Assembly: GCA_963832655.1 (NCBI GenBank)
Contig: CAWHUW010000005.1
Coordinates: forward strand, 257,156 to 321,155
Origin: an uncultured Thermoleophilia bacterium
Lineage (GTDB): Bacteria; Actinomycetota; Thermoleophilia; UBA2241
Length of the DNA: 64,000 nucleotides
Direction: 5' to 3'
Shown here: piece after piece, positions 13,538 through 63,564 of the stretch
How the letters are laid out: the number at the start of each line of letters is the position of its first letter
How positions within the stretch are numbered: the stretch's first letter is position 1
Position numbers and translations under genes: made by a program
Notes under the pieces: generated by a model
The model's database searches: none
The model's input: only the letters and a program-made list of their open reading frames with translations
What the model was told of the DNA's origin: nothing

Positions 13538-13556
13538 CAGGCCCGAGGAGACGACG

Positions 13557-14721
13557 GTGAAGCCGGCGACCACCGGCCAGGTCGCGCACGGCCCCGGGGC
13601 CGGCGACGTCTGGGTCTTCGTCGAGCAGCGCGACGGCGTCGCGGCCGAGGTCAGCCTGGAGCTGCTCGGCCGCGCCCGCGAGCTCGCCGACCGGCTCGGC
13701 GTCAAGGTCGGCGCCGTGCTGGCCGGGGCGGGCGAGGCCGTCAAGGCCCTCGCGCCCGCCCTCGTCGCCCGCGGCGCCGACACCGTGTACCTCGCCGACC
13801 ACGAGCATCTCGGGCAGTACCTCGCCATGCCGTACACGAGCCTCGTCGCCGGCCTCGTCCGCCGGCATCAGCCGCAGATCGTCCTCTACGGCGCGACGAC
13901 CACCGGCCGCGACCTCGGCCCGCGCGTCGCCAGCACCCTGCGCACCGGCCTGACCGCCGACTGCACCGACCTGCGCATCGGCGACCTCGAGATGAAGGGC
14001 ATCGTCACGCGGGACCTGCTGTACCAGATCCGTCCCGCCTTCGGCGGCAACATCATCGCGACGATCGTGAGCCCCGAGCACGTGCCGCAGATGGCGACCG
14101 TGCGCGAGGGCGTCATGGTCATGCCTGAGGCGGACGAGGCGCGGACCGGCGAGATCGTCGACGGTGGCCGTCCAGCGCGGCCATGCGGCCGCGGCCGACG
14201 GCCCCATCCTGCTCCCCGACGCCGACTTCGCCGTGCGCGTCGTGCGCCGCGTCCAGGAGGAGAAGACGGTCGACCTCAAGGGCGCCCGCATCGTCGTCTC
14301 GGGCGGCGTCGGGGTCGGCTCGCGCGAGGGCTTCGCCCTCGTCGAGCAGCTCGCCGACGCCCTCGGCGGCGTGGTCGGCGCCTCGCGCGCCGCGGTCGAC
14401 GCCGGCTGGATCGCCCACGACCACCAGGTCGGGCAGACCGGCGTGACCGTGCGCCCCAAGCTCTACATCGCCTGCGGCATCTCCGGCTCGGTCCAGCACC
14501 GCGCCGGCATGGACCAGTCGGCGCGCATCCTCGCCATCAACAGCGACCCCGGCGCGCCGATCTTCGCGGTCGCGCACTACGGAATCGTCGGCGACCTGCA
14601 CAAGGTGATCCCGATGCTGATCAAGGCCTACCGGACGAAGGGCGCGGCGGCCGTGCCGGGCGCCGCGATGGCGACCGGAGCCGGGGCGGGCGCCGCAAGC
14701 GCAGCGGAAGGCGGCGCCTGA
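13557..14721 (+). CDS. etfA: Electron transfer flavoprotein alpha subunit. There is a frameshift near ~14160.
   Basis: [11 protein letters not shown]...[13 protein letters not shown]-terminus; the C-terminal FAD-binding part ([16 protein letters not shown]...[15 protein letters not shown]) is in ORF 14164..14721. A GAGGAG SD lies before GTG 13557. Confidence 0.8.
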
Positions 14722-20839: not shown

Positions 20840-22958
20840 CGAACACCTCGACGCGGTTCTTGCCCATGCGCTTGGCCAGATAGAGGGCCTTGTCCGCCTC
20901 CCTGACGAGCTCGTCCGGGTCCGCGGCGCCGGGGTGGGCGGCCACACCGACGCTCACCGTCACACCGACGGCGCCGACCGCCGGCCACCGACGCGGCCTC
21001 GACGACCCGGCGGATGCGTTCGCCGACGATGCGCGCGCCCTCGCCCCGCTCTGACGGCAGCGCCGGGTCCCGGGAGGCGGCCACGCCTCGACGGCGAGCA
21101 GGCCGTCGAGCGCGGCGATCTCCCGGACGATGCGGTCGCCGACGACCTCGGCACCCTCGCGCGCCGTGTTGGGCAGGATCACGGCGAACTCCTCGCCCCC
21201 GTACCGCGCGGCCACGTCCACATCGCGTCGCAACTGCGTCGCGAGCAGCCGGCCCACCTGCGCCAACACCAGGTCGCCGGCCGGGTGGCCGTACTGATCG
21301 TTGAAGGCTTTGAAGTCGTCGATGTCGAGCATGAGCAGCGAGAGGGGCAGACCATAGCGCTGGGCGCGGGCGGACTCCTGCGCGAGCCGCTCGTAGAAGT
21401 AGCGGTGGTTGTACAGACCGGTGAGGCCGTCGGTGATCGCCTGCTCCTGCACGGTCCGGTAGAGGCGCGCGTTGGCGAGCGCCGCGGTCGCCTGGCTCGC
21501 GAGGATCTGGACCATCTCGACGTCCTCGGCGTCGAAGGGGCCCCGGCCGGCGACCGCGACCTCGACACAGCCTTCGACCTCGTCGCCGGCCGTGAGCGGA
21601 GCGACCAGGCGGACGCCGTCGGCTCCGGATTCCTGCGCCGGGCGGCGGTCGGCGACCGCGGTCCGACGCAGTTCGTCCTGCTCTTCACCGTCGCCGTCGG
21701 CCCTCGCTCCGAGCGACACCGTGACGCCCTCGTCCGGCGCCGCGAAGAGCTCCGAGATGGCAGCGCACGTGTCGTGGAGGACGGCCTCGACGTCGAGTGA
21801 CGCCGCCAGCGAGCGGCTCGTCTCGAGCAAGGCCAGGAGCCGGCGGTTCTGCTCCTCCTGCTCGCGGTGGAAGCGTGCGTGGACGATGGCCACGGCGGCC
21901 TGTTCGCCGAGGGCCCTCGCCAGCTCTGTCTCGTCCGGCGAGAAATGCCGTTCGCGATCGGCCTCGATGAGGATCAACTCGCCGACCGGCGTCCCCTCGA
22001 AGAGCATCGGCACGTTGAGGCACGTTCTCTCGCCCCAATCTGTCATGGCCTCGCGGACGAAGGGATCAAGCGAGGGATCCGAGACGCGGTCCTCGACGAT
22101 CGCTCCTGAATGCAGCATCTCGCGATCACCAGGCCGCTCGTCGACATCGTACTCGGCGCCGATCTGTGCTTGCGCGTCCTCGCTCGGCTCGGCCTGGTAG
22201 ATGGCGCGGAACACGAAGACCTCGCGCTCCGCGACGTACTCGTAGATCACGGCCTCGGCGGTCTCGAGCGCCGAGGCCGCCTCGCGGCAGACGACGTTGA
22301 GGATGTCCTCGAGGACGACGGCCGACGTCAGGGTCCGGCTGGAGTCAAGCAGCGACGCCAGATGACGCGCCTGGTCCTCCTCACGACGATAGAGGCGGGC
22401 GTTGTTGACCGCGACGGCCGCAGGGATCGAGAGCAGCCGGACGAGTTCCTTGTCGTCCGCCGTGAAGTGCCGGACCTCGCGCTTCTCGATGAGCGTGAAG
22501 CACCCGATCACGCGATCCTCGAAGACCAGCGGCACCGACATCGTCGCCAGCTCGCCCCACTCCTCCATGAGCTGGCGGTCGAGCGCGTCGGTGCCCTCGG
22601 TGTCGTCGTAGCTCTCGTCGGTGGCGCCTTCGAGCAGGACCCGATGGTAGCTCGGACGATCGGCCAGCGACCATGCGGTGCCGATCCAGTCGTGGTCCTC
22701 CTGCGTCATCTCGCGCGCCCAGGCCGTCGTGGCCACGATGGTCTCGCTGTCGGGGTAGTACTCGTAGATGTCGCACTCCCAGACGTCGAGCGCCTCGGCG
22801 ATGCGGCGAGCCACGCTCCCCAGGACCTCTTCCAGCGCGAGACTGGAGGTGAGGGCGGCCCCCACCTCGCAGGCGATCTCGTGATGACTCTTGACGGCCG
22901 CGTGTCCACGCACGGGCGACGCTCCTGTTCGTACTCCTGCGAGTATCGGCACGCGCAC
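20832..22958 (-). CDS. Diguanylate cyclase, third GAF-GAF-GAF-GGDEF paralog. An imperfect internal duplication causes a local frame disturbance near the C-terminus.
   Basis: RYGGEEFAVILPNT, DGLTGLYNHRYF, 708 aa. Confidence 0.75.
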   Translation of the reverse strand: MRVPILAGVRTGASPVRGHAAVKSHHEIACEVGAALTSSLALEEVLGSVARRIAEALDVWECDIYEYYPDSETIVATTAWAREMTQEDHDWIGTAWSLADRPSYHRVLLEGATDESYDDTEGTDALDRQLMEEWGELATMSVPLVFEDRVIGCFTLIEKREVRHFTADDKELVRLLSIPAAVAVNNARLYRREEDQARHLASLLDSSRTLTSAVVLEDILNVVCREAASALETAEAVIYEYVAEREVFVFRAIYQAEPSEDAQAQIGAEYDVDERPGDREMLHSGAIVEDRVSDPSLDPFVREAMTDWGERTCLNVPMLFEGTPVGELILIEADRERHFSPDETELARALGEQAAVAIVHARFHREQEEQNRRLLALLETSRSLAASLDVEAVLHDTCAAISELFAAPDEGVTVSLGARADGDGEEQDELRRTAVADRRPAQESGADGVRLVAPLTAGDEVEGCVEVAVAGRGPFDAEDVEMVQILASQATAALANARLYRTVQEQAITDGLTGLYNHRYFYERLAQESARAQRYGLPLSLLMLDIDDFKAFNDQYGHPAGDLVLAQVGRLLATQLRRDVDVAARYGGEEFAVILPNTAREGAEVVGDRIVREIAALDGLLAVEAWPPPGTRRCRQSGARARASSANASAGSSRPRRWPAVGAVGVTVSVGVAAHPGAADPDELVREADKALYLAKRMGKNRVEVFGD

Positions 22959-23075
22959 GCGTATCCATAAGAGGCGACACTAGGAGAACCGTCTAGGCGC
23001 AGGCTGCGCCGGCAGGGACGGCGGCGAGCTCGCGGGCCTCGCGCCGCGCCGGGAGGCGCCGCGCGCCCGAAGCGG

Positions 23076-47935: not shown

Positions 47936-48643
47936 ATGAGCCCCGGACCCGCACAGACCCTCCTTGACCTGCGCGAGGCTGAGCTGTTCGCGCGCCTCGA
48001 CGGGGACGAGCTGGCCAGAGTGGCGGCGCTCGCCCGCCCGTTGGAGCTGCCGGGCGAGCGCCTGCTCTTCCTGCAGGGCGACGAGGCGGCGGCCTTCTAC
48101 ATCCTCGCCGCCGGCCAGGTCAAAGTCTTCAAGATGCTGCGTGACGGACGCTCGGCGACGATCCGTCACGTCCGGCCTGGTCAGTCCTTCGCCGAGGCGG
48201 CGCTCTTTCGCGAGACGTACCCGTCGAGCGCCGAGACCCTGGCCGCCAGCCGGCTCTACAGGTTCGACACCAACGAGTTCCGCAAGTTGCTGCTCGCCGA
48301 GCCGCAGCTCGCCGTCAGCCTGCTGGCCGCGATGGCCGAGCTGCTCGGCCTGCTCAATCGCCGCGTCGAGGAGTTGCTGCTCCCCGTGCCGGCCCGCCTG
48401 GCGCGCTACCTGCTGGCGCTCGCCGAGGCCCAGCTCGCACCTCCCTCGCAGGACGGCGGGCCGAGGGTCGTGCATCTGCCGACGACCAAGCGCGAGCTCG
48501 CCGCGCGCCTCGGCACCGTCCCCGAGACGCTCAGCCGTACCTTCGACCGCTTCAAGCGCGCCAAGATCATCCGCATGAGCAGCGGCCACGAGCTCATCGA
48601 GATCCTCGACTTCGGCGCCCTGCGTCGCCTGGCACAGGAGTAG
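47936..48643 (+). CDS. Crp/Fnr-family transcriptional regulator (no FNR Cys cluster, no obvious CooA heme ligands).
   Basis: cNMP-binding-like domain (FLQGDEAAAFYILAAGQVKVFK) and C-terminal HTH (TKRELAARLGTVPETLSRTFDRFK). Confidence 0.8.
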   Translation: MSPGPAQTLLDLREAELFARLDGDELARVAALARPLELPGERLLFLQGDEAAAFYILAAGQVKVFKMLRDGRSATIRHVRPGQSFAEAALFRETYPSSAETLAASRLYRFDTNEFRKLLLAEPQLAVSLLAAMAELLGLLNRRVEELLLPVPARLARYLLALAEAQLAPPSQDGGPRVVHLPTTKRELAARLGTVPETLSRTFDRFKRAKIIRMSSGHELIEILDFGALRRLAQE

Positions 48644-48772: not shown

Positions 48773-49741
48773 ATGGCACGCGAACCTCTCACTCGCGCTG
48801 ACTTCCTCAAGATCCTGGCCGCCGGCGCCGGCGGCGTCGTGTTCTTCCGCGGGGCCGAGGACGCGCTCGCCGGCATCGCCGGCGCACACGACGACATCGA
48901 CCAGGCTGCTCTCAGCGGCGACCTCGCGGCGGCCCTCGCTTACCCCCACATGACCGTCGTCAAGGGTACCCCGATCGGCACGAACGTGAGGACGGCCATC
49001 GCGAAGCTCGGCGGCATGCGCCGCTTCGTCGCCGCCGGCGCCGACGTGATCATCAAGCCCAACATCTGCACCGCGCGCACGCCGGGGTACGCGGCGACCA
49101 CCAACCCCACCGTCGTCGCGACGCTCGTGCGCCTGGCGCTCGGCGCGGGAGCGAGCCGGGTCCGGGTCATGGACAACCCGATCTCGGTGGCCCCGCTCGG
49201 CGCCTACACCACCAGCGGGATCAAGAGCGCCGTGGAGAAGGCCGGGGGGGCCATGCAGATCATGAGCGGCACCCGCTATCGGGACTACTACGTCGGCGGC
49301 CTCCTCGGCTACCACCCGCTCTACAGCGACATGCTCGCCTGCGACGTCCTCATCAACGTGCCGGTCGCCAAAGTGCACGGGGCCACCGGCCTCACGCTCG
49401 CCGGCAAGAACATGATGGGCGCCACGAACGACCGCGGGGCGATGCACACCAAGGGACTCAGCAGGAGCATCGCCGAGATCAACCGCAAGCTGAAGCCGGA
49501 CCTCACGGTCATCGACGCCATCCGGATCCTCGTCGCGCACGGCCCGACCGGCGGCAACCTGTCCGACGTGCGCCGCAAGGACACCGTCATCGCCTCCAAG
49601 GACTGGGTGGCGGCCGACGCGTACGCGACGCGGCTGTTCGGCAGGACGCCCCGCTACGTCCCCTACATCGCGGCCGCGCACCGCATGGGCCTCGGGGAGA
49701 ACGACCTGTCGAAACTGACCATCCGGAAGTACTGGGTCTGA
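48773..49741 (+). CDS. DUF362 family protein with a Tat-like N-terminus.
   Basis: LTRADFLKILAAGAGG followed by VIIKPNICTAR...AATTNPTVVATLVRLALGAG, typical of DUF362. Confidence 0.55.
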   Translation: MAREPLTRADFLKILAAGAGGVVFFRGAEDALAGIAGAHDDIDQAALSGDLAAALAYPHMTVVKGTPIGTNVRTAIAKLGGMRRFVAAGADVIIKPNICTARTPGYAATTNPTVVATLVRLALGAGASRVRVMDNPISVAPLGAYTTSGIKSAVEKAGGAMQIMSGTRYRDYYVGGLLGYHPLYSDMLACDVLINVPVAKVHGATGLTLAGKNMMGATNDRGAMHTKGLSRSIAEINRKLKPDLTVIDAIRILVAHGPTGGNLSDVRRKDTVIASKDWVAADAYATRLFGRTPRYVPYIAAAHRMGLGENDLSKLTIRKYWV

Positions 49742-49748
49742 GCGAGCC

Positions 49749-51383
49749 GTGAGGGACGAGGCCGAGGCGGTGCGCCGGTCGACGGGCGGCTGGAAGGCCG
49801 CCCGCTGGGCCCGGCGCGCCACCCAGATCGCCGCGTTCGCCGTCTTCGTGTACCTGCTGTTCGCGGGGCTGCAGCGCCTCGAGCCGCTGCCCTACGCGAA
49901 CATCTTCTTCCGCTTCGACCCGCTGGCGGCGTTCGCGACCATGCTGGCCGCCCGCGTCTGGATGCCGGACTTCGCTCTCGCGCTCGTCACGCTGGCGCTG
50001 GCCGTCGTCGTGGGCCGCGTCTGGTGTGGCTGGATCTGCCCGCTGGGCAGCCTGCTCGGGTGGCTCCGGTTCCGCTCCGCGCCGCGGCGGGCCGGGCGTG
50101 TGCCCCCGGCCCTGCGGCGCGTCAAGTACGTGCTCCTCGGCGCCGTCGTCGTGCTCGCCGCCCTCACCGGCCTCACCCTTCTCGTACTCGACCCTGTCGC
50201 CCTGCTCACGCGCACCGCGACGACGTCGCTCATCCCCGGCGCCGTCTTCATCGTCGACAGTCTCGAGGAGGCAGGGATGCGCTGGGAGCCGACGGTCGGC
50301 GCCGTGACGTGGGTCGAGGACCACTTCCGCGGCAACGTCCTCCCGACGATCCAGCCGCGGTACGGGCAGGCGGTCCTGCTCTTCCTGGTCCTGCTCGCGG
50401 TGATCCTTCTCAACGCCTTCGCGCACCGCTTCTGGTGCCGGTACCTGTGCCCGCTCGGAGCGCTGCTCGGCCTGGTCGCCAAGGTGCAGGTGCTGCGCCC
50501 CGTCGTCGGCGACGCCTGCGACCGCTGCGGCGCCTGCGCTCGCGCCTGCGGCGTCGACGCCATCGAACTGGCGTCGGACGGCGGCGCCGTGGCGCCGGCT
50601 GCCGACTCGCCGAACGGCGGCACCGCCCGCGTCGTCACCTCGGAGTGCACGATGTGTCTCGACTGCCTCGTCGCCTGTCCCCGACCCGGCGCCATGAGCT
50701 TCGGCGTGGCGCGGCGGCCCGGGCCGTGGGCGCCGTACGATCCGGGGCGCCGCGAGGTCGTCATCGCGGCGGCGGCCGGCGTGGGAGCCGCGGTGCTCTT
50801 CGGCACCGGCGTCGCGCGCGCCGTGCCGCGCCCGGGCCTGATCCGCCCGCCGGGCGCCCAGGACGAGGCGCGCTTCCTCTCCCGCTGTCTGCGCTGCAGC
50901 GAGTGCATGAAGGTCTGCCCCACGTCCGGCCTGCAGCCGACGCTCGCCGAGGCCGGCCTCGAGGGGCTCTGGACCCCCGTCCTCAAGTCGCGCCTCGGCT
51001 ACTGCGACTACGCCTGCACCGCCTGCGGACACGTCTGCCCGTCCGGCGCCATCCCGAAGCTGGGCCTCGAGGAGAAGCGCGTGCAGGTCCTCGGCGTCGC
51101 CGTCATCGACCGCGACCGCTGCCTGCCGTGGGCGTCGGACACACCCTGCATCGTCTGCCAGGAGATGTGCCCCGTCCCCGACAAGGCCATCGAGCTCGTC
51201 GGGCAGCACCTGGTCACCCGCCCCGACGGCTCGCAGGACTACCTCTCGCGGCCGAAGGTCATCGCCGACCGCTGCATAGGCTGCGGTATCTGCGAGTACA
51301 AGTGCCCGCTCGAGGGGACTTCGGCGATCGTGGTCCTGCCGTCGAACCCCGACCTCGCCGGCGGCACGGTGCCTCTCGGCTGA
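49749..51383 (+). CDS. NapH/MauN/CcoG-like membrane polyferredoxin (4 TM helices and four [4Fe-4S]-type Cys motifs).
   Basis: Two CGWICPLG / CRYLCPLG motifs plus CDRCGACARAC, CTMCLDCLVACP, CLRCSECMKVCP, CTACGHVCP and CIGCGICEYKCP. Confidence 0.7.
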   Translation: MRDEAEAVRRSTGGWKAARWARRATQIAAFAVFVYLLFAGLQRLEPLPYANIFFRFDPLAAFATMLAARVWMPDFALALVTLALAVVVGRVWCGWICPLGSLLGWLRFRSAPRRAGRVPPALRRVKYVLLGAVVVLAALTGLTLLVLDPVALLTRTATTSLIPGAVFIVDSLEEAGMRWEPTVGAVTWVEDHFRGNVLPTIQPRYGQAVLLFLVLLAVILLNAFAHRFWCRYLCPLGALLGLVAKVQVLRPVVGDACDRCGACARACGVDAIELASDGGAVAPAADSPNGGTARVVTSECTMCLDCLVACPRPGAMSFGVARRPGPWAPYDPGRREVVIAAAAGVGAAVLFGTGVARAVPRPGLIRPPGAQDEARFLSRCLRCSECMKVCPTSGLQPTLAEAGLEGLWTPVLKSRLGYCDYACTACGHVCPSGAIPKLGLEEKRVQVLGVAVIDRDRCLPWASDTPCIVCQEMCPVPDKAIELVGQHLVTRPDGSQDYLSRPKVIADRCIGCGICEYKCPLEGTSAIVVLPSNPDLAGGTVPLG

Positions 51384-52338: not shown

Positions 52339-52655
52339 GGGTGCCTCCCGGACGCCGGGTCGTCTGCCCGGCAGGCGCGATCGACGCGCGACGTCGGGAC
52401 TGTGTTCGCACGCGACGTCTCACGACCTTCCCGTGGGCCGACGTCCGGGGGCAGCGCGCGACCTCCGCGTCCTCGCGGTTGACCCAGGTCAATGCACCGA
52501 CGGCCCGGTGCCGGTACAGTAACCACCACGGCGGCAGTGTTTACTGCGCCGTGACCCACCAAACCGACACACCCGGCCGCCGGCGCTCGCGCGACGATCC
52601 CCCGTCGTGACAACGGCTTCGGCGGCGGCAGATCCGGAAAGAGGTCACATAGCCA

Positions 52656-53036
52656 TGGCAGTCCGCAACATCGTGAAGATCGACGAGGAGCTCTGCAACG
52701 GGTGCGGTCTCTGCGTCACCCCGTGCGCCGAAGGCGCGATCGAGATGGTCGACGGCAAGGCCAAGGTCGTCAAGGACGAGCTCTGCGACGGCGCCGGCTT
52801 CTGCCTCGCAGTGTGCCCGACCGGCGCCCTCACCGTCGAGGAGCGCGAGGCGCCGGCGTTCGACGAGGAAGCCGCCGCCGAGCGCGTCGCCGAGAAGCTC
52901 GCCGCCGCCGTCGCCATCCAGCAGAACTGCTTCAACTGCGGCCGCAGCGAGATGGACGCCGTCCTCTTCCCCTGCCGCAACAAGGGCGCAAGCACCTGGG
53001 TGTGCGTCAAGTGCCTGCCCGCCCTCATCCACGGTT
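52656..53036 (+). CDS. Ferredoxin-like protein with one canonical and one atypical Cys motif plus a Cys-rich C-terminal tail.
   Basis: [11 protein letters not shown] (CxxCxxCxxxC), [12 protein letters not shown] (C-x5-C-x3-CP), then NCFNCG...FPC...WVCVKC. Confidence 0.65.
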
Positions 53037-53086
53037 GACCGGCGCCCTCGGCGCCTGAACGTTCCCAACTCTCCCAGGAGGAGTCC

Positions 53087-54952
53087 ATGGCCGACAGTTA
53101 CCACGCATCAGTCCACACGATGCTCGAAGAAGCCCGGGAGCAGGGCGAGGACACGGCGTTCGACCGCATGGACGCCATGGGCCGCCGCTGCACCTTCTGC
53201 GAGCAGGGCATCCGCTGCTCGCTGTGTTCGCAGGGTCCCTGCCGCATCACCGAGAAGGCGCCGCGTGGCGTCTGCGGGATCGACGCCGACGGCATGGCGA
53301 TGCGCAACTTCCTGCTGCAGAACACGATGGGCACCGCCACCTACACCTACCACGCGACCGAGGTGATGAAGACCCTCCGCGAGGCGAAGCCCGGCGGCAC
53401 CTACGAGATCAAGGACTGGAGCAAGCTCGAGACGCTCGCCTCCGTGGTCGGCGAGCCCGCCGAGCCCAGGGACACGTTGCCCAAGCGGGTCGCCGACGCG
53501 ATCCTCGCCGAGTTCAACCGCGACCACCAGAGCCCCTCGCCCTTCGTCGAGAAGATGGCGCCGGCTCCGCGCGTGGCCAAGTGGAAGGAGCTCGGCATCA
53601 TGCCGGGCGGCATCTTCCACGAGAGCATGTTCGCGACCTCGAGCTGTCTCACCAACGTCGACGGCAACTACGTGAGTCTCGCCCTCAAGGCCCTCCGCCT
53701 CGGGATCGCCACCGCCTACGGCGCGCAGATCCCGCTCGAGCTCGCCCAGGACGCGCTCTGGGGCACGCCGACGCCGCACCCCATCAAGGTCGACCTCGGC
53801 ATCATCGACCCCGCCTACGTCAACATCGTCGTCAACGGCCACGAGCCCATGGTCGGCGCCGCCCTGATCGCCGCGGCCCACGAGCCGGCGGCTCAGGAGA
53901 AGGCGAAGGCCGCCGGCGCCAAGGGCCTGCGCATCGTCGGCTCGATCGAGACCGGCCAGGAGCTCGTCCAGCGCTTCGAGGTCGACGACGTCTTCGTCGG
54001 ACTCACCGGCAACTGGCTCACCGAGGAGCTCGCCGTCGCGACCGGCGGCCTCGACGTGTTCGCCGCCGACATGAACTGTACCGTGCCGACCCTCGGCGCC
54101 ACCTGCGCCGCCCACGGCACGCTCCTCGTGCCCGTCAGCGACCTCGTCGGCATCGACGGCGCCGAGACGCCGATCGTCTTCGACCCGGCCAAGGCCGGCG
54201 ATCAGGCGAAGCAGCTCATCGAGCTGGCCGTAGCCAACTTCCCCAAGAGGAAGGCCCTCGGCCAGACCACCCCCGCGCTGCGCACGGGCGACGCCGTCGC
54301 CGGTTTCAGCACCGAGAGCATCCTCGGCGCCCTCGGCGGCAGCCTCGACCCGCTGCTCGACGTCATCAAGAACGGCACCCTCAAGGGCGTCTGCGGCCTC
54401 GTCAGCTGTACCACGCTGCGCGACTCGGACCAGGACAGCCACACGGTCGCGATCGCCAAGGAGCTCATCAAGAACGACGTCCTCGTACTGGCCATGGGTT
54501 GCGGCAACGCCGCCCTGCAGGTCGCCGGTCTCGAGGCCGCCGAGGCCAAGGAGATGGCCGGCCCCGGCCTCAAGGCGGTCTGCGAACTGCTCGGCATCCC
54601 GCCGGTCCTGAGCTTCGGCACCTGCACCGATACGGGCCGCATCTTGCTGCTCGTCGGCGCCATCGCCGACGCCCTCGGCGTCGACGTCCCGGCGTTGCCC
54701 GTCGTGGCTACGGCACCCGAGTACATGGAGCAGAAGGCGACCATCGACGCCATGGCGGCGCTGGCCTTCGGCCTGTACGTGCATGTGAACCCGGTGCCGT
54801 TCGTCACCGGCGCGCCGAACCTCGTCAAGCTGGTGACCCAGGACCTCCCGGGCGTCACCGGCGGCAAGCTCGACGTCGAGACCGACGCCAAGAAGGCCGT
54901 GGCGAACATGATGGCGTGGATAGCGGACAAGCGCCAGGCACTCGGGATTTGA
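53087..54952 (+). CDS. CooS-family (anaerobic Ni-CO dehydrogenase catalytic subunit) homolog. It has a CxxC-type D-cluster motif, and the CooS Cys-Cys pair containing Cys295 aligns to Ile-Glu.
   Basis: 621 aa, collinear from my memory of the CODH-II sequence: CTFCEQGIRCSLCSQGPCRI, GVCGIDADG (B-cluster Cys), NIVVNGHEP (His261 equivalent), DMNCTVPT (Cys333), GVCGLVSCTT (Cys446), AMGCGNAAL (Cys476), FGTCTDTG (Cys526), EQKA (Lys563). GICCTGNE in CODH-II aligns to GSIETGQE. Confidence 0.75.
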   Translation: MADSYHASVHTMLEEAREQGEDTAFDRMDAMGRRCTFCEQGIRCSLCSQGPCRITEKAPRGVCGIDADGMAMRNFLLQNTMGTATYTYHATEVMKTLREAKPGGTYEIKDWSKLETLASVVGEPAEPRDTLPKRVADAILAEFNRDHQSPSPFVEKMAPAPRVAKWKELGIMPGGIFHESMFATSSCLTNVDGNYVSLALKALRLGIATAYGAQIPLELAQDALWGTPTPHPIKVDLGIIDPAYVNIVVNGHEPMVGAALIAAAHEPAAQEKAKAAGAKGLRIVGSIETGQELVQRFEVDDVFVGLTGNWLTEELAVATGGLDVFAADMNCTVPTLGATCAAHGTLLVPVSDLVGIDGAETPIVFDPAKAGDQAKQLIELAVANFPKRKALGQTTPALRTGDAVAGFSTESILGALGGSLDPLLDVIKNGTLKGVCGLVSCTTLRDSDQDSHTVAIAKELIKNDVLVLAMGCGNAALQVAGLEAAEAKEMAGPGLKAVCELLGIPPVLSFGTCTDTGRILLLVGAIADALGVDVPALPVVATAPEYMEQKATIDAMAALAFGLYVHVNPVPFVTGAPNLVKLVTQDLPGVTGGKLDVETDAKKAVANMMAWIADKRQALGI

Positions 54953-55088
54953 CGGACGCCTGGCGCTCAGAGCTGTCGAGCGTTGCGGCGAAGCGTCACT
55001 GCTCCTGCGGAGAGAAGCGAGCCGCGCTGGGCATCTGATCGCGGAGCATGCGACGCCGCTGGCTGCGGCGTCGTCACACAACAGAACG

Positions 55089-55118
55089 CGACGGGGCGGG
55101 CCTCACGACCCGCCCCGT
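55089..55118. terminator. Bidirectional GC-rich hairpin between the cooS-like gene and the convergent small membrane gene.
   Basis: gacggggcggg-cctcacga-cccgccccgtc. Confidence 0.45.
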
Positions 55119-55129
55119 CGCCCGTTCAC

Positions 55130-55451: not shown

Positions 55452-56564
55452 TCACGGCACGTTCCAGATGCGCGTACCGACGTGGACCCGGGCGTAGAGC
55501 CAGAGGACGTTCTTGTTCGCCAGCCGCGTGCATCCGTGAGAGTAGGCGCGCGGGAAGCGGGTCAGGAGCCACGGCTCGTTGGTCCCGTGGATCGCATAGG
55601 CGCCCAGGTAGCGCATGCGGCGCGGCCCGTAGGGACCGCCGACCCAGTCGTCCTTGGCGTAGATGCGGAAGCCGCCCTGCGGCGTCGGCGTCGACGGCTT
55701 GCCCAGCACGCAGTCGAAGACGCGCACCACGCGCCCGTACTCGTGGTAGTAGAGCTTGTACTGCGACTTGTCCACGACGACGAAGTGAGCCTCGCGTCTG
55801 GACACGCCGTACGGGTTGGGATCCTTGACGAGGACGACCTCCTCGGGGCCGGCGCCGGCGACGTGATCGGCGTCGGCGGTCATCGCCAGGCGAAAGCGGA
55901 CGTATCCGCGCTCGTCACTGACCCAGCGGAAGAACACTCGGGACTCGTCGTTGAGCGTCACGGTCCGCCATCGGGTCCAAACGCCGTCGACGCGCCGCTG
56001 CACGTCGATCGCCGAGCCCGGATGGGCCGGCTCCACCTGCGCCGTGAACGCGACCTTCCACCCCTGGTACACGGAGCTTGTCGCGGTCATCGAGAGGCGC
56101 GGCCGGACCGAGACCGTCGTCTCGGCGGAGGCCGCGCTCCAGACCGCGTCGCCGGCGAACTCCACGCGATACGTCGCCGTCCGTCGCGGGCTCACAGTCC
56201 ACGACGCAGCGCCCACGACATCGGTCACGACCGTTTGCACGAGCGAATAGACCGCCGGCCCGGTGCCGCGCGAGACCGTCAGGACCGCGCCCGGGACGCC
56301 GAGTTGCGCGGTGAGGGTCGTCGTGCGCCCGGCGGTGATCGAGGATCGCGCCGCGCTGAGGGTGAGGGCAGGTGACGCGACGTCGCCCGCGGACGGCAGC
56401 TCGGCAGCACGTACCGGAGCCGGGCCGCAGACCGCGCCGACGACCATCGCCCCGCAGGCGATGACGCACGCCCGGACGAGGATGGCGCGAGCTGCCGACC
56501 CTGGATGAACGTGCACGACGACCCCTTTCTCCGGCCGGCGATCGCCGGCGGCGTTCGTCATGAC
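55452..56564 (-). CDS. L,D-transpeptidase (YkuD domain) with an N-terminal signal peptide and Ig-like domains.
   Basis: C-terminal YkuD motifs GAYAIHGTNEPW and SHGCTRL. Confidence 0.7.
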   Translation of the reverse strand, partial: VMTNAAGDRRPEKGVVVHVHPGSAARAILVRACVIACGAMVVGAVCGPAPVRAAELPSAGDVASPALTLSAARSSITAGRTTTLTAQLGVPGAVLTVSRGTGPAVYSLVQTVVTDVVGAASWTVSPRRTATYRVEFAGDAVWSAASAETTVSVRPRLSMTATSSVYQGWKVAFTAQVEPAHPGSAIDVQRRVDGVWTRWRTVTLNDESRVFFRWVSDERGYVRFRLAMTADADHVAGAGPEEVVLVKDPNPYGVSRREAHFVVVDKSQYKLYYHEYGRVVRVFDCVLGKPSTPTPQGGFRIYAKDDWVGGPYGPRRMRYLGAYAIHGTNEPWLLTRFPRAYSHGCTRLANKNVLWLYARVHVGTRIWNVP

Positions 56565-56642
56565 GATTCTCAGCCGGCGTGCGGATTCCTCGGTGGGCCA
56601 CGGGACACCCCCGGCGACGCGAGCCGGTGATAGCCTTGTCCC

Positions 56643-58967
56643 GTGGGCCTTTCCTTGTTCGCCACGGTGCCCAGGGGCATGGAGTCTCTGCTGGCCGGCG
56701 AGCTGCGCACGCTCGGCGCCGGCAAGATCCGACAGCTGCGCACCGGCGTGTCGTTCACGGGTTCGCTCGAGACCGCGTACCGGGTCTGCCTGTGGTCGCG
56801 CCTCGCCGGACGCGTGCTCGTCACGCTCGCCTCGGGGCCCGCCTATGACGCCGAGGCGCTCTACGCGACGGCGCGCCAAGTCGACTGGAGCGACCACCTC
56901 GGCCCGGACGAAACCCTCGCCGTGGACTTCACCGGCGTCAGCGCGGAGATCCGCGACACACGCTTCGGCGCGGTGCGTGTCAAAGACGCGATCGTCGATC
57001 AGCTTCGCGAGCGTCACGGCGGGCGGCGGCCGTCCGTCGACGCGCGCGCGCCCGACGTGCGCGTCAACGCGCACCTGGCGCGCGAGCACGTGACGATCTC
57101 GCTCGACCTCGCCGGCGACAGCCTGCACCGGCGCGGCTATCGCGTCGACAAGGAGCAGGTCGAGGCGCCGCTCAAGGAGACACTGGCCGCCGCCGTGCTG
57201 CGCTTCGGCGCCTGGCCGCAGGAGGCCGCCGCCGGGGGCAGCCTGCTTGACCCGCTGTGCGGGTCGGGCACGCTGCTCATCGAGGCGGCCTGGATGGCGG
57301 CCGACGTCGCGCCCGGGCTGCTGCGCGCGGAGGCGGCGGATCCGTCACTGGCGGAAGACGATCGGGCGCGGGGCGGGGCGCCCCGCGCCGCGGAGGGCTC
57401 GAGCCCTCGCGGCTTCGGCTTCACGCGCTGGAAGGGCCACGACGCCATGATCTGGGCGGTGCTCGTCGCCGACGCCCAGGGGAGCAGGAGAGTCGGACTC
57501 TCGCGGCTGCACGCGGCCGCGCCCAGCCTCGTCATCCGCGGCAGCGACAGCGACAGTCGCGCCGTCCGCGTGGCGCGGGCGTGCGTCGAGCGCGCCGGTC
57601 TGCACGGCATCGTCGCCGTCGACCAGGCAGACCTGGCCGACGTCGTCCCACCCGCCGCGCACGGTCTGGTCGCCGCAAACGCGCCGTACGGCGAGCGGAT
57701 GGGAGACCCCGAGAGCGCCGAGGCCGTCTGTCGCCTGCTCGGCGAGCGGCTCCGCGCCGCCTTCGGCGGCTGGCGAGCCGCCGTGCTCGCCGGCGACCCC
57801 CACCAGGCCGCGGCCATCGGCTTGCCGCTCGTCCGCGACACCGTGCTCCGCAACGGCGCTCTCGACTGCACGCTGAGCTACTTCGATCTCGACGCGGCAG
57901 CGGTGGCGCGCACCGCCCGCGCCGCCGCCCGGTCTTCAGCACACAAGGCGCACGCAGACGCGCCATCGGCGCGTGCGTCCGCCCCAGGTCCCGAGCAGCT
58001 CGCCAACCGACTGCGCAGGAACCTGCGCCACATCGGCCGCCTGATGCGCCGCCAGGACGTGACCTGCTACCGCCTGTACGACGCCGACCTTCCTGAGTAC
58101 AGCGTCGCCGTCGACGTCTACGAGCAGCGTCTCCACGTACAGGAGTACGCCGCGCCGTCGGAGATAGACCCGGTGCGCGCGGAGGAGCACCTGGACGAAG
58201 CGGTCGCCGCCATCGCCGACGTCCTTCAGGTCGACCGCCACGACATCGTGGTCAAGCAGCGCCTCCGGCAGCGCGGCGCGGCGCAGTACGAGCGCCGCGC
58301 CGGCAGCGGCGCCCTCCAGCGCGTGACCGAGGACGGGCTCGCCTACCTCGTGGACCTCGAGAGGTACCTCGACACCGGCCTCTTCCTCGACCAGCGCGAG
58401 ACGCGACGCCTCATCCGGCGCCTCGCCGGCGGACGCCGCTTCCTCAACCTGTTCGCCTACACGAGCACGGCCACGGTCTGCGCCATCGCCGGGGGCGCCG
58501 CGACGACGACCTCGGTCGACCTCTCGGCCACCTACCTCGACTGGTCGCGGCAGAACCTCGCCGAGAACGGCGTGACCGACGTGAGCGTGGAGCGCGCGGG
58601 TCGCGACGCCGGCACGACCCGCGCCGCCCACCGGCTCGTGCAGGCGGACTGCCTCACGTGGCTCGCCCAGGCCGAGGGCCAGTACGACCTGATCCTGCTC
58701 GACCCGCCGACATTCTCGAACTCCAAGCGCATGGGGGGCGCGACGTTCGACGTCCAGCGCGACCATCCGGACTTGATCCGCATGACGGCGCGCCGCCTGC
58801 TCGCCCCCGGCGGGGTCCTCCTCTTCGCCTGCAACAGGCGCGGCTTCAAGCTCGACCCCGCCGCGCTTCCCGGCCTCACCGTCAAGGACCTCTCGCGCGC
58901 CACCCTCGCCCCCGACTTCGCGCGGCGCGCCAACGCCCATCACGTCTGGCGGATCGAGGCGCGCTGA
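56643..58967 (+). CDS. rlmL: Bifunctional 23S rRNA methyltransferase RlmKL (THUMP domain and two methyltransferase domains).
   Basis: 774 aa; DPLCGSGTLLIEAA, PYGERMGD, C-terminal LILLDPPTFSNSKRM. Confidence 0.7.
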   Translation: MGLSLFATVPRGMESLLAGELRTLGAGKIRQLRTGVSFTGSLETAYRVCLWSRLAGRVLVTLASGPAYDAEALYATARQVDWSDHLGPDETLAVDFTGVSAEIRDTRFGAVRVKDAIVDQLRERHGGRRPSVDARAPDVRVNAHLAREHVTISLDLAGDSLHRRGYRVDKEQVEAPLKETLAAAVLRFGAWPQEAAAGGSLLDPLCGSGTLLIEAAWMAADVAPGLLRAEAADPSLAEDDRARGGAPRAAEGSSPRGFGFTRWKGHDAMIWAVLVADAQGSRRVGLSRLHAAAPSLVIRGSDSDSRAVRVARACVERAGLHGIVAVDQADLADVVPPAAHGLVAANAPYGERMGDPESAEAVCRLLGERLRAAFGGWRAAVLAGDPHQAAAIGLPLVRDTVLRNGALDCTLSYFDLDAAAVARTARAAARSSAHKAHADAPSARASAPGPEQLANRLRRNLRHIGRLMRRQDVTCYRLYDADLPEYSVAVDVYEQRLHVQEYAAPSEIDPVRAEEHLDEAVAAIADVLQVDRHDIVVKQRLRQRGAAQYERRAGSGALQRVTEDGLAYLVDLERYLDTGLFLDQRETRRLIRRLAGGRRFLNLFAYTSTATVCAIAGGAATTTSVDLSATYLDWSRQNLAENGVTDVSVERAGRDAGTTRAAHRLVQADCLTWLAQAEGQYDLILLDPPTFSNSKRMGGATFDVQRDHPDLIRMTARRLLAPGGVLLFACNRRGFKLDPAALPGLTVKDLSRATLAPDFARRANAHHVWRIEAR

Positions 58968-59134
58968 ACGAACCCGGCGACTCGCGCGTCATACGTTCCG
59001 ATGGGTGCCGTCCGCGCGCCGTCCTCCGGCTGCGACGACGTTTCGCAGGCGAGTCTGGACGTGTGCGTGGAACGGCATAGTATGAGCGACAGATGACGGC
59101 CGCCCGGCCGTCGGAGGGGAAGGAGATGGGGTCC

Positions 59135-61565
59135 ATGAGCACATGCACGAGTCGCAGGCGCGTCCCCGCGCGCGCGGCGATCCTGGCAGCCCTGGCAGTC
59201 GTCGTCCTGCTGGTCTTCGCGACATCGGCGGTCGCCGCGCCCACGGAGCCGACGCTCACGGTCGACGAGTTGCGCGCCAAGCTCGAGAGCGGACCGCTCG
59301 ACGGCTACCTCAAGACCGTCGTCAAGGGCTACACCATCGAGAAGATCCCAGTCACGGTCCAGGACATCGTCGAGCTGTCCTGGGGCAACCTGATCCTCGC
59401 CGAGGCGAGCGGTCCGGTGATCGACCAGCTCGGCAGCATCGCCTCCGGCATGAGCGGCAGCCCCGTCTTCGTCGACGACGGCGGGGTCGACAAGCTCGTC
59501 GGCGCCCTGTCGTACGGGAGCGACTTCACCATCGGCGGCACGTTCATGGCGACGCCGATCCAGTACATGTCGGCGATCGAGGCCGACTACGTCAAGCCGC
59601 CGGCGGCGGGCACGTACAAGCTGGCGGAGCCCGTGCAGACCGATGGCGGCCGCATCGACAGCGTCGTCATCGCCCGCGGCGTCAAGGCGGCGACGCAGAT
59701 CGACGCCAGGGCGGGTCAGCTCGTCATGGCCCCGCTCGGACTCATCGAGATCGGCGGCCTCGCGCCCCAGACCCGCGCCTACAAGGAGCTCGCCGCGAGG
59801 CTCGAGAAGCAGACCGGACTCCCGGTGGTGGCCGCGAGCGGCGGCTCCCTGGCGCCGCCCGAGGCGCCGCCCCTCGAAGGCGGCTCGTCGATCTTCCAGC
59901 TCTTCTCGCAGGGCGCCGTCTGGTACGGCTCGGCGGGGACGGCGACGTACGTCAACGGCGACGTCGTGGTCGCCTACGGCCACCCCGCCTGGTGGACCGG
60001 CCCCTGCGGCGCCGCCATGGCCGGCGGCTACGTGAGCGGCATATGGCCCAGCCAGTGGGCGCCGTTCAAGCTCATGGCCCCGCGCGACATCAAGGGCACC
60101 ATCGTCCAGGACCGCAACTGGGGGATCGCCGGCATCGTCGGCCAGGACCCCGAGATGGTCTCGGTCACCTCGACGGTGACCTTCCCCGAGCAGGGTGACC
60201 GCGTCGTCTCGACCACGTCGACCGCTGCGGAATGGGCGTTCAGGACCGACGGCTACCAGGACCTGGCCGGTTACCTGATCATGCAGGCGCTGTGGGATGC
60301 GTGTGACGTGTCCTTCATGCCCGGCAGCGCCGAGACGACGACGACCGTCCACGTCTCCGACGAGACCGGCCCCTATGTCGTCACGATCGACAACACGTGG
60401 GATTCCTTCGACATCACCTTCGAACCGGTCTTCGACGTCATGGACGCCCTCTGGGCCCTCGGTTCCGACCCGGACGGCGTGCTCGACGTGCGCCTCGACT
60501 CGGTCGACTTCCAGGCGACCATCTCCACGGCACGCAAGTCCGGTCGCCTCGTCGACATCGCGCTGCCGAACGGCCTCAAGACCGGCGACAACATCGTGAG
60601 GCTCAGCTACTACGGGTACGGCTCGCGCGAGCTGAAGACGCAGGATGTGACGCTGACGCTCCCCGCGGGGATGCCGGTGAACGGCGACATCGAAGTCATG
60701 CCGGCGAACTGGTCCTCCTGGGAGGACGGCATGGAGGGCGATGTCGCGGTCGCCGATCCGTCCGCGCCGGCCACCCTCGCCGAGATCGTCGACGCTCTCA
60801 ACAGCCGGCCGAAGAACACCGACCTGATCGTGACCTTCTACCCCCGCGAGGAGGGTGGCGGTCCGGAGCCGATGGGAGAGCAGAGCAGACCCACGGCGAG
60901 GGTCGGCGAACCCTCCGGCGGCGACGCCTCGAATCTCGAGCCCGTCGAGGTGACGGTGTCCACAGCCTGGGTGTTCCAGGACATGCTGGGCATCTCGACC
61001 ATCCCGGTCACGCTCGACGCCATGCCGGCGCGGGTCGACCTCGGTGAACCGGTCATGCTCAGCGGCACGGTCCAGGGTATCGCCGCCGACGTGCCGGTCT
61101 CGATCTTCAGGGTCGACGCCGCGACCGGCAAGGAGACCCTCGTCGACACGGTGACGGCCGCCTACTCGGAGGGCATGGCCTGGTTCGAAGCGACGGCAAG
61201 GCCGACAGCTGCACAACACGACCTTCGTCGCCCGCGTCGGGGAGCTCGAGGGCTGGCTGCCCGGCAGCGCCGAGGACACGGTCAAGGTGCGCGCCGAGGT
61301 CCGCCTGGCGACGGTCGGTGGAGGGCCGGCGCGTCCTTCTGGCGCCCATGGTTCGGCCGTCCGACACCGGCGGCAAGGTCGCCGTGCAGCGCTATGTCGG
61401 CGGAAGCTGGCGGACCGTGGCGACCCTCACGCTGAACTCGTCGGGCAGCGCCGTGAAGGTGTGGACCGCGCCCGGCGCCGGCACCTACCGCTTCCGGGCC
61501 AAGTTCCTCGGCAGCGCGCTCAACGCCGCCGGCACTTCCGCAGTCGCGCGCGTGGTCGTGCGCTG
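59135..61565 (+). CDS. Secreted S55 (SpoIVB-like) serine peptidase family protein with C-terminal Ig-like/beta domains. There are frameshifts near ~61200-61300.
   Basis: Signal peptide (AAILAALAVVVLLVFATSAVAAPT); GSIASGMSGSPVFV resembles the SpoIVB catalytic Ser motif. The C-terminal segment is in ORF 61318..61566. Confidence 0.45.
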
Positions 61566-61748: not shown

Positions 61749-63564
61749 ATGAAGCGGTCCGTCCTGCTCGCGAGCCTGGTTCTCGCGAATCTGTCTGCTC
61801 TGGGCGCCCGGGGTCGCCCTCGCGCTCACGCAGCAGCAGTGCCTCACCTGCCACACCGAGATCACGCCGGGCATCGTGACCCAATACCAGTCGGGCGCCA
61901 TGGGCGACGACGTCGCCTGCCTCGACTGCCACGGCGACGACCACAGCGTCATCACCGCCACCGAGGGCAAGGTCCCGGCCGGGAAGTGCGCCGGTTGCCA
62001 CCCCGACCAGTACGCGGAGTTCACCGTCAAGGACGCGACCGGGTCGTACATCAACAAGCACGCGCAGGGCTGGACGCGAATGCTCGCCGGCGCCCGCTAC
62101 AAGGTCATGCCCGAGGCCGAGCGCTACGAGATGTGCGAGCGCTGCCACAACATCGGCTACACCTACGTGGACGGCTCGGTCGGCAAGTGCGACTCGTGCC
62201 ACACGCGGCACGTCTTCTCTGCCGAAGAGGCGAGAGAGCCGGCCGCCTGTGGCACCTGCCACATGGGCCCCGACCACGAGCAGATCGACATGTGGGAGAA
62301 GAGCAAGCACGGCGTCGTCTACATGACCGAGAAGGAGCGCCCCGGCGGCGATCCCGGACGAGCGCCGACCTGCGTCACCTGCCACCAGCCTGAGATGGTG
62401 AACGGTGCCGGCCAGCCGCTGACGCACAACGTGTCGACCAACCTGACGTACGGCACCGTCGCCCAGGGCGCCCGCCTCGTCGGGACGCCACTGTCGGTGC
62501 CGATGCGCACGATGACCGAGTCCGAGTTCTCCTCCCGGCGGGCGAACATGCTCGGAGTCTGTGGCGACTGCCACTCCTCGACGTGGGCGCGCAAGAACCT
62601 CGAGCTCGCCGACCAGATCAAGATGGACGTCGACGAGCTGCTCTGGGACCCGGTCATGCGCATCCGCGGCCTCTGGTACGACGGCCTGCTCGACCCGATG
62701 CCCGAGAACCGGCCGCCGAACCCGGTGTACGCCGCCGCCGGACCCAACTTCGTCAACGGCGGCTACGTGCTCGTCCTCGGCGGCCAGCAGCTCTACAGCG
62801 ACACGTCGGCGATCGAGCAGTGGCTCTTCTACACCTACAAGTACGACCACGTGAACACGTTCAAGGGCGCCTACCACATCAACCCCGACTACAGCCACTG
62901 GTTCGGCTGGTCGGAGGTCAACCAGGACATCGGGATGATCAGGGGCGAGGAGGCCTCGCTGCGCCGCGGTGAGGACCCGGGTTTCGCGGCCAGCCCGACG
63001 CGGCCCGTGGTCGGACAGCCGACGACGTTCGACGCGAGTGCCCTCGCGGCGTGGGGCGACGCGAGCGCCAACGTGTATGCGTGGACCTTCGGCGACAAGG
63101 CGTCTGCTGCTGCCGCGGCCGAGACGAGCGTCGCCCATACCTACGCCGCCCCCGGCCGCTACACGGTGCAGCTCACCTGCTCCGACGGCGACCTCGTCAA
63201 CAACGTGCTTCAGCCGCTGAGCTGCTCCGGGAAGCGCACGAGCAGCCTGCGAACACAAGCCAAGTACGGCGCCACGTTCGGGCTCTACGAGATCGCTCGC
63301 GTGAAGAAGGGCAAGCAGGTCACCATCAAGGGGTCGCTCAAGACCGACGACTCCAACGCCGCCCTCGTCCAGCTCTGGGAGAAGGTCGGCTCGGGATCGT
63401 GGAAGATGGTCAGCTCCAAGACGGTCGCCACGACGGCCGGCGTGTCCCTGACCGTGTCCTTCAAGCGCACGCTGAACTCCAAGACGTCCTTCAAGCTGAC
63501 CTACGTCGGCGACGCCGACACGTGGGACGTGACCACCAAGACGCGGACCATCTCACCGCTCTGA
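61749..63564 (+). CDS. Octaheme c-type cytochrome (HAO / octaheme nitrite reductase-like heme arrangement) with a C-terminal PKD-like domain and beta-rich tail. There is a frameshift near ~61800.
   Basis: Signal peptide MKRSVLLASLVLANLSAL. Eight CxxCH motifs: CLTCH, CLDCH, CAGCH, CERCH, CDSCH, CGTCH, CVTCH, CGDCH. PKD-like VYAWTFGDKASAAAAAETSVAHTYAAPGRYTVQLTCSDGD. Confidence 0.7.

Follow-up and report, generated by a model that had tools for sequence, protein, structure and literature searches.

A CooS-V-type protein on the carbon monoxide dehydrogenase scaffold, with a ferredoxin partner gene and a candidate HcpR1-type operator, in an uncultured Thermoleophilia bacterium

What does a protein do that is built like an anaerobic carbon monoxide dehydrogenase (CODH) but carries a glutamate where the CODH active site has one of its metal-ligating cysteines? 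The question is raised by a gene of the CooS family in a stretch of 64 000 nucleotides (nt) from an uncultured Thermoleophilia bacterium (contig CAWHUW010000005.1; referred to below as the window, in whose coordinates all positions are given). An earlier examination of the letters and open reading frames (ORFs) of this DNA, hereafter the sequence-only reading, had singled the gene out and proposed an enzyme of the superfamily that joins CODH and the hybrid-cluster protein (Hcp), with a chemistry other than CO oxidation. Here we place the protein in a known class, the CooS-V type, and describe a conserved genetic context. The explanation that we favour, and consider probable, is that of a CooS-V-type enzyme that does not oxidise CO, encoded in an operon with a ferredoxin gene (fdx) behind an HcpR1-type box, controlled by an activator encoded nearby, and acting as a reductase of a small oxidant that is induced by nitrosative or redox signals. 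The gene itself is the following.

53087–54952, plus strand: CooS-V-type (clade D, group D-1) protein on the CODH scaffold, 621 amino acids (aa), assigned by profile, alignment, tree and fold match.

The ORF runs from an ATG start to a TGA stop and is preceded by AGGAGG, 5 nt upstream of the ATG at 53087. Its G+C content at third codon positions (0.95), in a window of 70% G+C, fits a real gene of the host genome. The 621-aa product matches the Pfam Prismane/CODH family (PF03063) with E = 2e-138 and scores 738 bits against TIGR01702, the NCBIfam equivalog for the catalytic subunit of anaerobic CODH, for which the cut-off is 478. In HMMER searches PDB 7B7Q stood well ahead of the other solved relatives (E = 2e-204), aligned over residues 4–621, in keeping with the collinearity with anaerobic CODH catalytic subunits that had been noted from the letters. 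The Hcp families, on the other hand, were not matched (TIGR01703, 36 bits versus 361; NF003658, 31 bits versus 367): their profiles align to the C-terminal third only, and matches to Hcp structures in the PDB have E = 5e-7 or weaker. Judged by its sequence, the protein belongs at full length to the CooS family and not to Hcp, and its Glu288 stands where CODH-II has Cys295.

To place the cluster ligands, the sequences of CODH-II, CODH-IV and CooS-V were rebuilt from printed PDB alignments and aligned with the window protein using MAFFT. Cys295 of CODH-II falls on Glu288 and Cys294 on Ile287. Pairwise HMMER alignments set GSIETGQE opposite GMCCTGNE (6T7J) and GICCTGNE (6ELQ), and the structural alignment likewise gives Glu at position 295. 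Realignment to bring a Cys to this position was considered and rejected, as the segment G285-S-I-E-T-G-Q-E292 holds none. Most of the remaining CODH positions are kept, as the sequence-only reading had stated: His261 of CODH-II corresponds to His252, Cys333 to Cys331, Cys446 to Cys441, Cys476 to Cys472, Cys526 to Cys513 and the catalytic Lys563 to Lys550, and the B-cluster cysteines are Cys44, Cys47, Cys52 and Cys63. The D-cluster motif is C35-T-F-C38-x5-C44, the type III pattern Cys-x2-Cys-x5-Cys, with Arg43 at the position of CODH-II Cys47. This agrees with the C-x2-C motif already reported from the letters, and by analogy with 7B7Q the bridging cluster at Cys35 and Cys38 would be of the [2Fe-2S] type.

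Three further deviations had gone unmentioned. His93 of CODH-II is replaced by Tyr86, His561 by Glu548 and Gln332 by Asn330; Glu548, two residues before Lys550, is the equivalent of Hcp Glu494. The canonical C-cluster set of His261 and Cys295/333/446/476/526, together with His93, is therefore incomplete, with Glu288 and Tyr86 instead. Glu288, Ile287, Tyr86, Asn330 and His252 are all invariant in the 188 relatives collected (51–95% identity); that the first four of these departures from CODH-II are shared so widely marks them as a fixed character of the clade and not a sequencing error.

The same conclusion emerges from the placement of the protein within the family. It is 54.7% identical to CooS-V, compared with 35–36% to CODH-II and CODH-IV, in the MAFFT alignment (53–55% to CooS-V across methods). 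All relatives that are at least 51% identical share the signature C C [R/S] Y H I E N C C C C E K. Below this value a representative library clustered at 50% identity shows a sharp break: the next group, at 40%, is D-2-like (His93 is replaced by Asn, and position 295 is a Cys), and clade C-like and canonical patterns follow it. In a neighbour-joining tree of 54 sequences and 610 columns, group D-1, including the window protein and CooS-V, was monophyletic in 100 of 100 bootstraps, and D-1 was joined with the D-2-like group in 97 of 100. The AlphaFold model of the protein (mean pLDDT 88, pTM 0.91) was compared with known folds using Foldseek, with CooS-V structures leading the list (7B9A and 7B7Q, TM-score 0.96 at 53% identity), followed by Ni-containing CODHs at TM-scores of 0.92–0.94 and 33–35% identity.

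Clade D and its group D-1, exemplified by CooS proteins of C. autoethanogenum and M. acetivorans, were defined by Inoue et al. in 2019 by a type III D-cluster, the ligand series H-E-C-C-C-C, a Tyr, a Lys and a Glu two residues before that Lys (K-2); the same authors noted that the D-1 ligand set equals that of Hcp (PMC6344411). All of these defining states occur in the window protein, as Tyr86, Lys550, Glu548 at K-2, the type III D-cluster and H-E-C-C-C-C, and it is a clear member of the CooS-V type, that is, of structural group D-1 of clade D. Phylogeny thus puts the protein inside a characterised clade, an outcome that the sequence-only reading had counted against itself in the case of a canonical clade; the clade in question is itself non-canonical, and the reading of the protein as a non-canonical CooS stands. 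The novelty that was implied does not, as the enzyme class is already known: the CooS variant with Cys295 changed to Glu was catalogued in 2019, and a member was solved and assayed in 2022.

That member is CooS-V of Carboxydothermus hydrogenoformans (PDB 7B7Q, 7B7T, 7B95, 7B97 and 7B9A), whose subclade is set apart by two synapomorphies, Cys295 to Glu and Gly to Cys41 (Jeoung et al. 2022, PMC9311411). According to the same study, the bridging cluster of CooS-V is [2Fe-2S] and the B-cluster [4Fe-4S], and in place of the C-cluster there is a morphing cluster, [4Fe-3S] when reduced and [4Fe-2S-S*-2O-2H2O] when oxidised, bound by His259, Glu295, Cys338, Cys449, Cys480, Cys521 and Glu556, with Asn337 nearby. 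Nickel is absent, and no oxidation of CO, no reduction of CO2 and no detectable reduction of NO were observed. Hydroxylamine is reduced slowly (kcat 0.13 s-1), the potentials of the hybrid cluster lie about 300 mV below those of Hcp, and both the cluster and the substrate channel switch with redox state, the channel being open in the reduced state. Introducing C295E into CODH-II abolished both nickel binding and activity. The genomic contexts of CooS-V-type genes offered no obvious functional link (all PMC9311411).

Every CooS-V cluster residue reported by Jeoung et al. has a counterpart in the window protein in the MAFFT alignment. With ligand roles transferred from CooS-V (PMC9311411), the predicted ligands of a hybrid cluster are His252, Glu288, Cys331, Cys441, Cys472, Cys513 and Glu548, with Asn330 and Lys550 nearby. 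The likeness between the two proteins thus extends from the scaffold and the ligand set (H, E295, C, C, C, C with E556 and N337 in CooS-V) to the C-x2-C [2Fe-2S] bridging motif, the B-cluster motif, the Tyr at the His93 position, the Lys563 equivalent and the D-1 clade. They differ in origin, CooS-V coming from a thermophilic Firmicute and the window gene from a Thermoleophilia genome of about 70% G+C, and in that the latter stands with a dedicated ferredoxin gene behind an HcpR-type operator. By homology with CooS-V, the exchanges of Cys295 for Glu, His93 for Tyr and His561 for Glu would replace the [Ni-4Fe-4S] C-cluster of a homodimeric CODH scaffold by an Hcp-like [4Fe-3S]/Fe-S-O hybrid cluster, and a protein with such a cluster instead of the nickel one would not be a CO oxidiser. 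The earlier proposal of a CODH/Hcp-superfamily enzyme with mixed Cys/Glu/His ligation and non-CO, possibly hydroxylamine, chemistry matches what has been published for CooS-V, and carries over to the window protein by this homology.

Two other known systems are instructive here. The CODH of Nitratidesulfovibrio (Desulfovibrio) vulgaris (6B6V and others), to which the C-x2-C motif had been likened, also has a [2Fe-2S] bridging cluster and a similar fold (TM-score 0.92–0.94). However, it keeps Cys301/302 and the His, is an active, CooC-dependent nickel enzyme and is only about 35% identical to the window protein; its D-cluster motif arose independently of that of CooS-V (PMC9311411). With Hcp the window protein shares the predicted hybrid Fe-S-O cluster, from a nearly identical ligand set, and the pairing of its gene with a ferredoxin-like gene. 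It differs from Hcp in being built on the dimeric CODH scaffold, which includes a bridging cluster, and the activities of its homologue CooS-V are far weaker than those of Hcp.

The features closest to the cooS-V gene are listed below.

52479–52492, no strand assigned: perfect palindrome TTGACCCAGGTCAA, a candidate operator of the HcpR1 type for a Crp/Fnr-family regulator, picked out as the sole exact match in the window and by conservation.
52515–52520, plus strand: −10-like hexamer TACAGT (TANNNT), with its first base 29.5 nt from the centre of the operator.
52655–53038, plus strand: fdx, ferredoxin-like partner of 127 aa, assigned by Pfam Fer4 families and synteny.
55088–55121, no strand assigned: GC-rich hairpin with a 15-bp stem, between cooS-V and the convergent downstream gene.

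The fdx gene ends 48 nt upstream of cooS-V, its ATG being set at 52655 because the family has a length of 125–129 aa. Directly upstream of cooS-V it recurs in nearly all of about 50 actinobacterial loci. This adjacency, together with the hairpin that probably marks the end of the transcript, argues for a two-gene operon in which fdx and cooS-V would be co-transcribed. The N-terminal domain of the ferredoxin has seven conserved cysteines, in the motifs C14-x2-C17-x2-C20-x3-C24 and C44-x2-A47-x2-C50-x3-C54-P; the absence of a second Cys from the latter suggests one [4Fe-4S] and one [3Fe-4S]-type site. A C-terminal module contributes four invariant cysteines in two CxxC pairs (92 and 95; 117 and 120). 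The AlphaFold model (pLDDT 72) returned no significant match in a fold search, the C-terminal four-Cys module being weakly zinc-domain-like (E = 3.5).

The protein and its partner have different distributions. About 50 genomes at species level, from uncultured Thermoleophilia and other Actinomycetota, have cooS-V orthologues that are 76–95% identical, compared with the five Actinobacteria genomes in the data of Inoue et al. (PMC6344411). More remote D-1 genes (51–60% identity) were found in Methanoculleus, Archaeoglobus, Ca. Kuenenia, Deltaproteobacteria and others. We looked for a neighbour common to all D-1 genes and discarded the idea: the archaeal loci (Methanoculleus and others) and those of Kuenenia and Bacillota share neither ferredoxin nor regulator with the actinobacterial ones. 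A conserved ORF of about 115 aa with an ‘RLWPRG’ motif lies about 70 nt upstream of cooS-V in the Methanoculleus loci (L061–L076); it stands immediately before the D-1 gene in 14 loci (13 from methanogens and one, L078, from Bacillota) and is unrelated to the actinobacterial ferredoxin. One actinobacterial locus (L008, 3361–7833) has a tandem fdx-cooS-V-fdx-cooS-V arrangement, in which the first cooS-V is broken at its C-terminus and reads into the region upstream of the second fdx, and which is either a real duplication or an assembly artefact. Two metagenome-assembled genomes (MFD00905.bin.2.53 and MFD09779.bin.3.322) contribute two cooS-V loci each.

The fdx ATG is preceded, at a distance of 163 nt, by the palindrome TTGACCCAGGTCAA, the only exact TTGAC-N4-GTCAA in the 64-kb window. 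Of 52 actinobacterial loci, 45 have an exact copy of this box 78–187 nt upstream of the fdx ATG; for three of the seven others, the available sequence reaches less than 80 nt upstream. Alignment of the promoters shows no conservation of the sequence flanking the box, and in 45 of 48 cases a TANNNT hexamer at +36 or +37, counted from the start of the box, and 29.5–30.5 nt from its centre. In class II activator-dependent promoters the operator is centred at −41.5. The spacing seen here would centre the box near −41.5 or −42.5, the geometry of a class II promoter activated by a Crp/Fnr-family protein, with transcription starting near 52527 and a leader of about 130 nt. A scan for sigma-70 consensus sequences found no promoter, which is expected for an activator-dependent actinobacterial promoter, and scans of the window for Rfam families and tRNAs, the leader of about 130 nt included, found nothing. 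In both deltaproteobacterial D-1 loci such a box precedes cooS-V by about 100 nt (exact in L060, with one mismatch in L075); the archaeal D-1 loci lack it.

The conserved TTGAC-N4-GTCAA is the published HcpR1 motif, wyTTGACnnnnGTCAArw, described for Geobacter, Desulfuromonas, Desulfotalea and cyanobacteria, where it is located upstream of hcp and the ferredoxin-like frdX and, in Desulfuromonas, also of the yccM polyferredoxin gene (PMC1274295, PMC545781). Two other candidates were set aside: a CooA operator, as the CooA site TGTCGGCnnGCCGACA differs in sequence from the fdx-cooS-V box, and a second box upstream of the regulator gene or of the DUF362 operon described below, for which the only one-mismatch match lies inside the DUF362 ORF and was taken as chance. 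As a separate observation, in many related promoters (for example those of L008, L010 and L012–L016) the −10 hexamer is followed, about 5–20 nt downstream, by a conserved direct repeat, GTCACTGTCAC; in the window and its nearest relatives (L050 and L024) its place is taken by AACCACCAC.

A candidate for the protein that binds the box is encoded upstream, followed by two further redox genes.

47936–48643, plus strand: Crp/Fnr-family regulator of 235 aa, candidate activator of fdx-cooS-V, with Pfam cNMP_binding and HTH_Crp_2 domains.
48773–49741, plus strand: DUF362 protein with a degenerate N-terminus resembling a twin-arginine (Tat) signal (TRADFLK, not RR), present in about 9–12 loci.
49749–51383, plus strand: NapH/YccM-like membrane polyferredoxin with CX3CP motifs, fused to a NapG-like 4x[4Fe-4S] part, 544 aa.

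The regulator contains no cysteine. Its recognition helix reads GTV-P-E-TLS-R, with Pro, Glu and Arg at CRP positions 180, 181 and 185. In HcpR1 regulators, which cluster with DNR and are devoid of the FNR cysteines, CRP position 180 is Ser or Pro and position 181 is Glu (Rodionov 2004/2005; PMC1274295, PMC545781); the window regulator has the helix of those HcpR1 regulators that bind TTGACnnnnGTCAA. Operator, absence of cysteines and the Pro/Ser180-Glu181 helix are thus all HcpR1-like. The NO sensor DNR (3DKW) is among its best solved relatives (E = 9e-19), and an attempt to read the ligand from such relatives was abandoned, the matches to 3H3Z, DNR and CRP of M. tuberculosis being unable to discriminate. 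In 29 related loci an orthologue of the regulator is encoded no more than 6 kb upstream, and in the subgroup at 78–80% identity it is directly adjacent; His78 and Met133 are invariant among the orthologues. We consider this Cys-free protein the likely activator of fdx-cooS-V.

The DUF362 and polyferredoxin genes are 8 nt apart, and the pair is found near a Crp/Fnr regulator gene in about 13 Thermoleophilia loci. The 544-aa fusion may be a membrane module for electron input, and its YccM-like part recalls the yccM polyferredoxin that belongs to the HcpR regulon of Desulfuromonas. Membership of the two genes in the system is uncertain, because they have no box of their own.

Taken together, these elements allow a course of events to be proposed. 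By analogy with the control of the hcp-frdX regulon by HcpR, an HcpR1/DNR-like activator would switch on fdx-cooS-V upon a nitrosative or related redox signal. The 127-aa ferredoxin would then donate low-potential electrons to the solvent-exposed [2Fe-2S] cluster, from which they would pass by way of the [4Fe-4S] B-cluster to the hybrid one. Once reduced and with its channel open, the hybrid cluster would reduce a small N- or O-oxidant, for example hydroxylamine or an NO-derived species. The comparison with the HcpR1 regulon is one of analogy and not identity, the target here being fdx and a CooS-V-type gene rather than the core targets hcp and frdX.

Several points weigh against this proposal. 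Hydroxylamine reduction by CooS-V is very slow, NO reduction was undetected and its potentials are low, so the true substrate may differ (PMC9311411). In a context survey (eLife 2026) most clade D genes were solitary and followed no common pattern, with the clade not discussed further, and archaeal D-1 genes have neither the ferredoxin nor the box; the operon would on this evidence be lineage-specific. The ferredoxin may not be a homologue of FrdX. The regulator is encoded within 6 kb in only 29 of about 52 actinobacterial loci, which means that another Crp/Fnr paralogue could use the box. Finally, TTGAC-N4-GTCAA is near to generic FNR-type boxes, and the signal could be plain anaerobiosis or redox state.

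This last point can be developed into an explanation in its own right, in which the operon belongs to a general regulon for anaerobiosis or low redox potential, an FNR-like sensor of O2 or redox state occupies the box, and the protein serves anaerobic electron disposal or the scavenging of peroxide. The box differs from the FNR consensus TTGAT-N4-ATCAA by a single base per half-site, other redox modules are close by (the DUF362 protein, the NapH/NapG-like polyferredoxin and a multihaem cytochrome), and peroxidase activity is also known for Hcp enzymes (PMC9311411, PMC6344411). However, a regulator devoid of cysteine cannot hold an FNR-type [4Fe-4S] sensor, and motif and Pro180-Glu181 helix match the HcpR1 group specifically, which makes this explanation unlikely in our view. 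It also seems improbable that the protein is mainly a sensor of redox state or small molecules, or a regulator, rather than an enzyme that turns over. The eLife 2026 survey did suggest regulatory or redox-sensing roles for clade D, which often co-occurs with active CODHs and Hcp, and the slow turnover of hydroxylamine by CooS-V and the redox-switched cluster and channel (PMC9311411) would suit such a role; yet Pfam detects no DNA-binding or signalling domain in the protein, and its inferred co-transcription with an electron-transfer protein behind a dedicated regulator site is the layout typical of an inducible redox enzyme.

That the protein is a genuine Ni,Fe-CODH after all, oxidising CO or reducing CO2, with the glutamate either an alignment artefact or itself the Fe1 ligand, deserves very little credence: it can call on the TIGR01702 score, the annotation as CODH in the source databases, five of six C-cluster ligands and the Lys563 equivalent, and genetic hints, cited by Inoue et al., that the D-1 proteins of M. 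acetivorans may aid CO oxidation (PMC6344411), but it has against it the agreement of three independent alignments and the structural superposition on Glu at 295 in a segment free of Cys, the loss of His93 to Tyr, the lack of nickel and of CO/CO2 activity both in the 55%-identical CooS-V and in CODH-II C295E (PMC9311411), an operator unlike the CooA site and the lack of cooC or other maturation genes in the window.

This last result comes from a scan of about 55 ORFs across the 64-kb window, in which cooC, cooJ, cooT, cooF and genes for acetyl-CoA synthase (ACS), energy-converting hydrogenase (ECH), a nickel transporter and Hcp were all sought and none was found; as far as the window reaches, the check for cooC and ACS partners suggested from the letters thus came out in favour of a protein other than a CO oxidiser. 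The Inoue network ties D-1 to a protein of the Zn-dehydrogenase family and to HypA/HypB (PMC6344411), none of which is present at the window locus. Recurrent genes downstream of cooS-V (encoding a PCC-domain protein, a C1 peptidase, SBP_bac_5 and a large unknown protein) were considered as partners and rejected, as they have the appearance of lineage synteny.

Elsewhere in the window, a multihaem c-type cytochrome of the seven-haem family is fused to a PKD domain (61876–63564, plus strand). Upstream of it lies the gene for a 780-aa protein (59093–61435, plus strand) with no match in Pfam or NCBIfam; in 33 related loci, relatives of this protein are encoded no further than 6 kb downstream of cooS-V. 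An L,D-transpeptidase (YkuD) ORF (55452–57128, minus strand) overlaps an RlmL-like fused methyltransferase ORF (56643–58967, plus strand) by about 490 nt; its YkuD domain is confined to the C-terminal 110 aa, and the long N-terminal extension is therefore probably not real. Three consecutive paralogues of about 715–770 aa each, at 16521–22979 on the minus strand, are diguanylate cyclases with multiple GAF domains and a GGDEF domain. At 12290–16461 on the plus strand, a pair of genes for the beta and alpha subunits of an electron-transfer flavoprotein precedes that for a long acyl-CoA dehydrogenase (579 aa) that has an additional domain at its C-terminus; the three genes may form an electron-bifurcating or fatty-acid oxidation module.

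The ferredoxin-CooS-V operon with an HcpR-type operator seems to be previously unreported, and a search on HcpR with cooS, within the literature collection used, found no link between HcpR and a D-1 gene. The window protein adds a D-1 member from a phylum, Actinomycetota, that was barely represented in earlier surveys. The dedicated ferredoxin is a candidate for the physiological electron donor, and the conserved operator and the regulator predict induction by nitrosative or redox signals. This operon context makes the cellular function of clade D more testable, in what is a niche question concerning uncultured organisms. There is also a practical consequence for annotation: pipelines label D-1 genes ‘anaerobic CO dehydrogenase catalytic subunit’, following the NCBIfam equivalog, and counting them as such would overestimate the potential for anaerobic CO oxidation in metagenomes that hold this lineage. 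More speculatively, and with the balance tilted against it for now, Thermoleophilia, and apparently some Deltaproteobacteria, may have recruited CooS-V-type proteins to an HcpR-like regulon as stand-ins for Hcp, in the form of an inducible, ferredoxin-fed reductase of low potential. If true, this would give the ‘CODHs’ of clade D their first physiological assignment, and would represent a second, independent evolution of a hybrid cluster together with its regulatory wiring.

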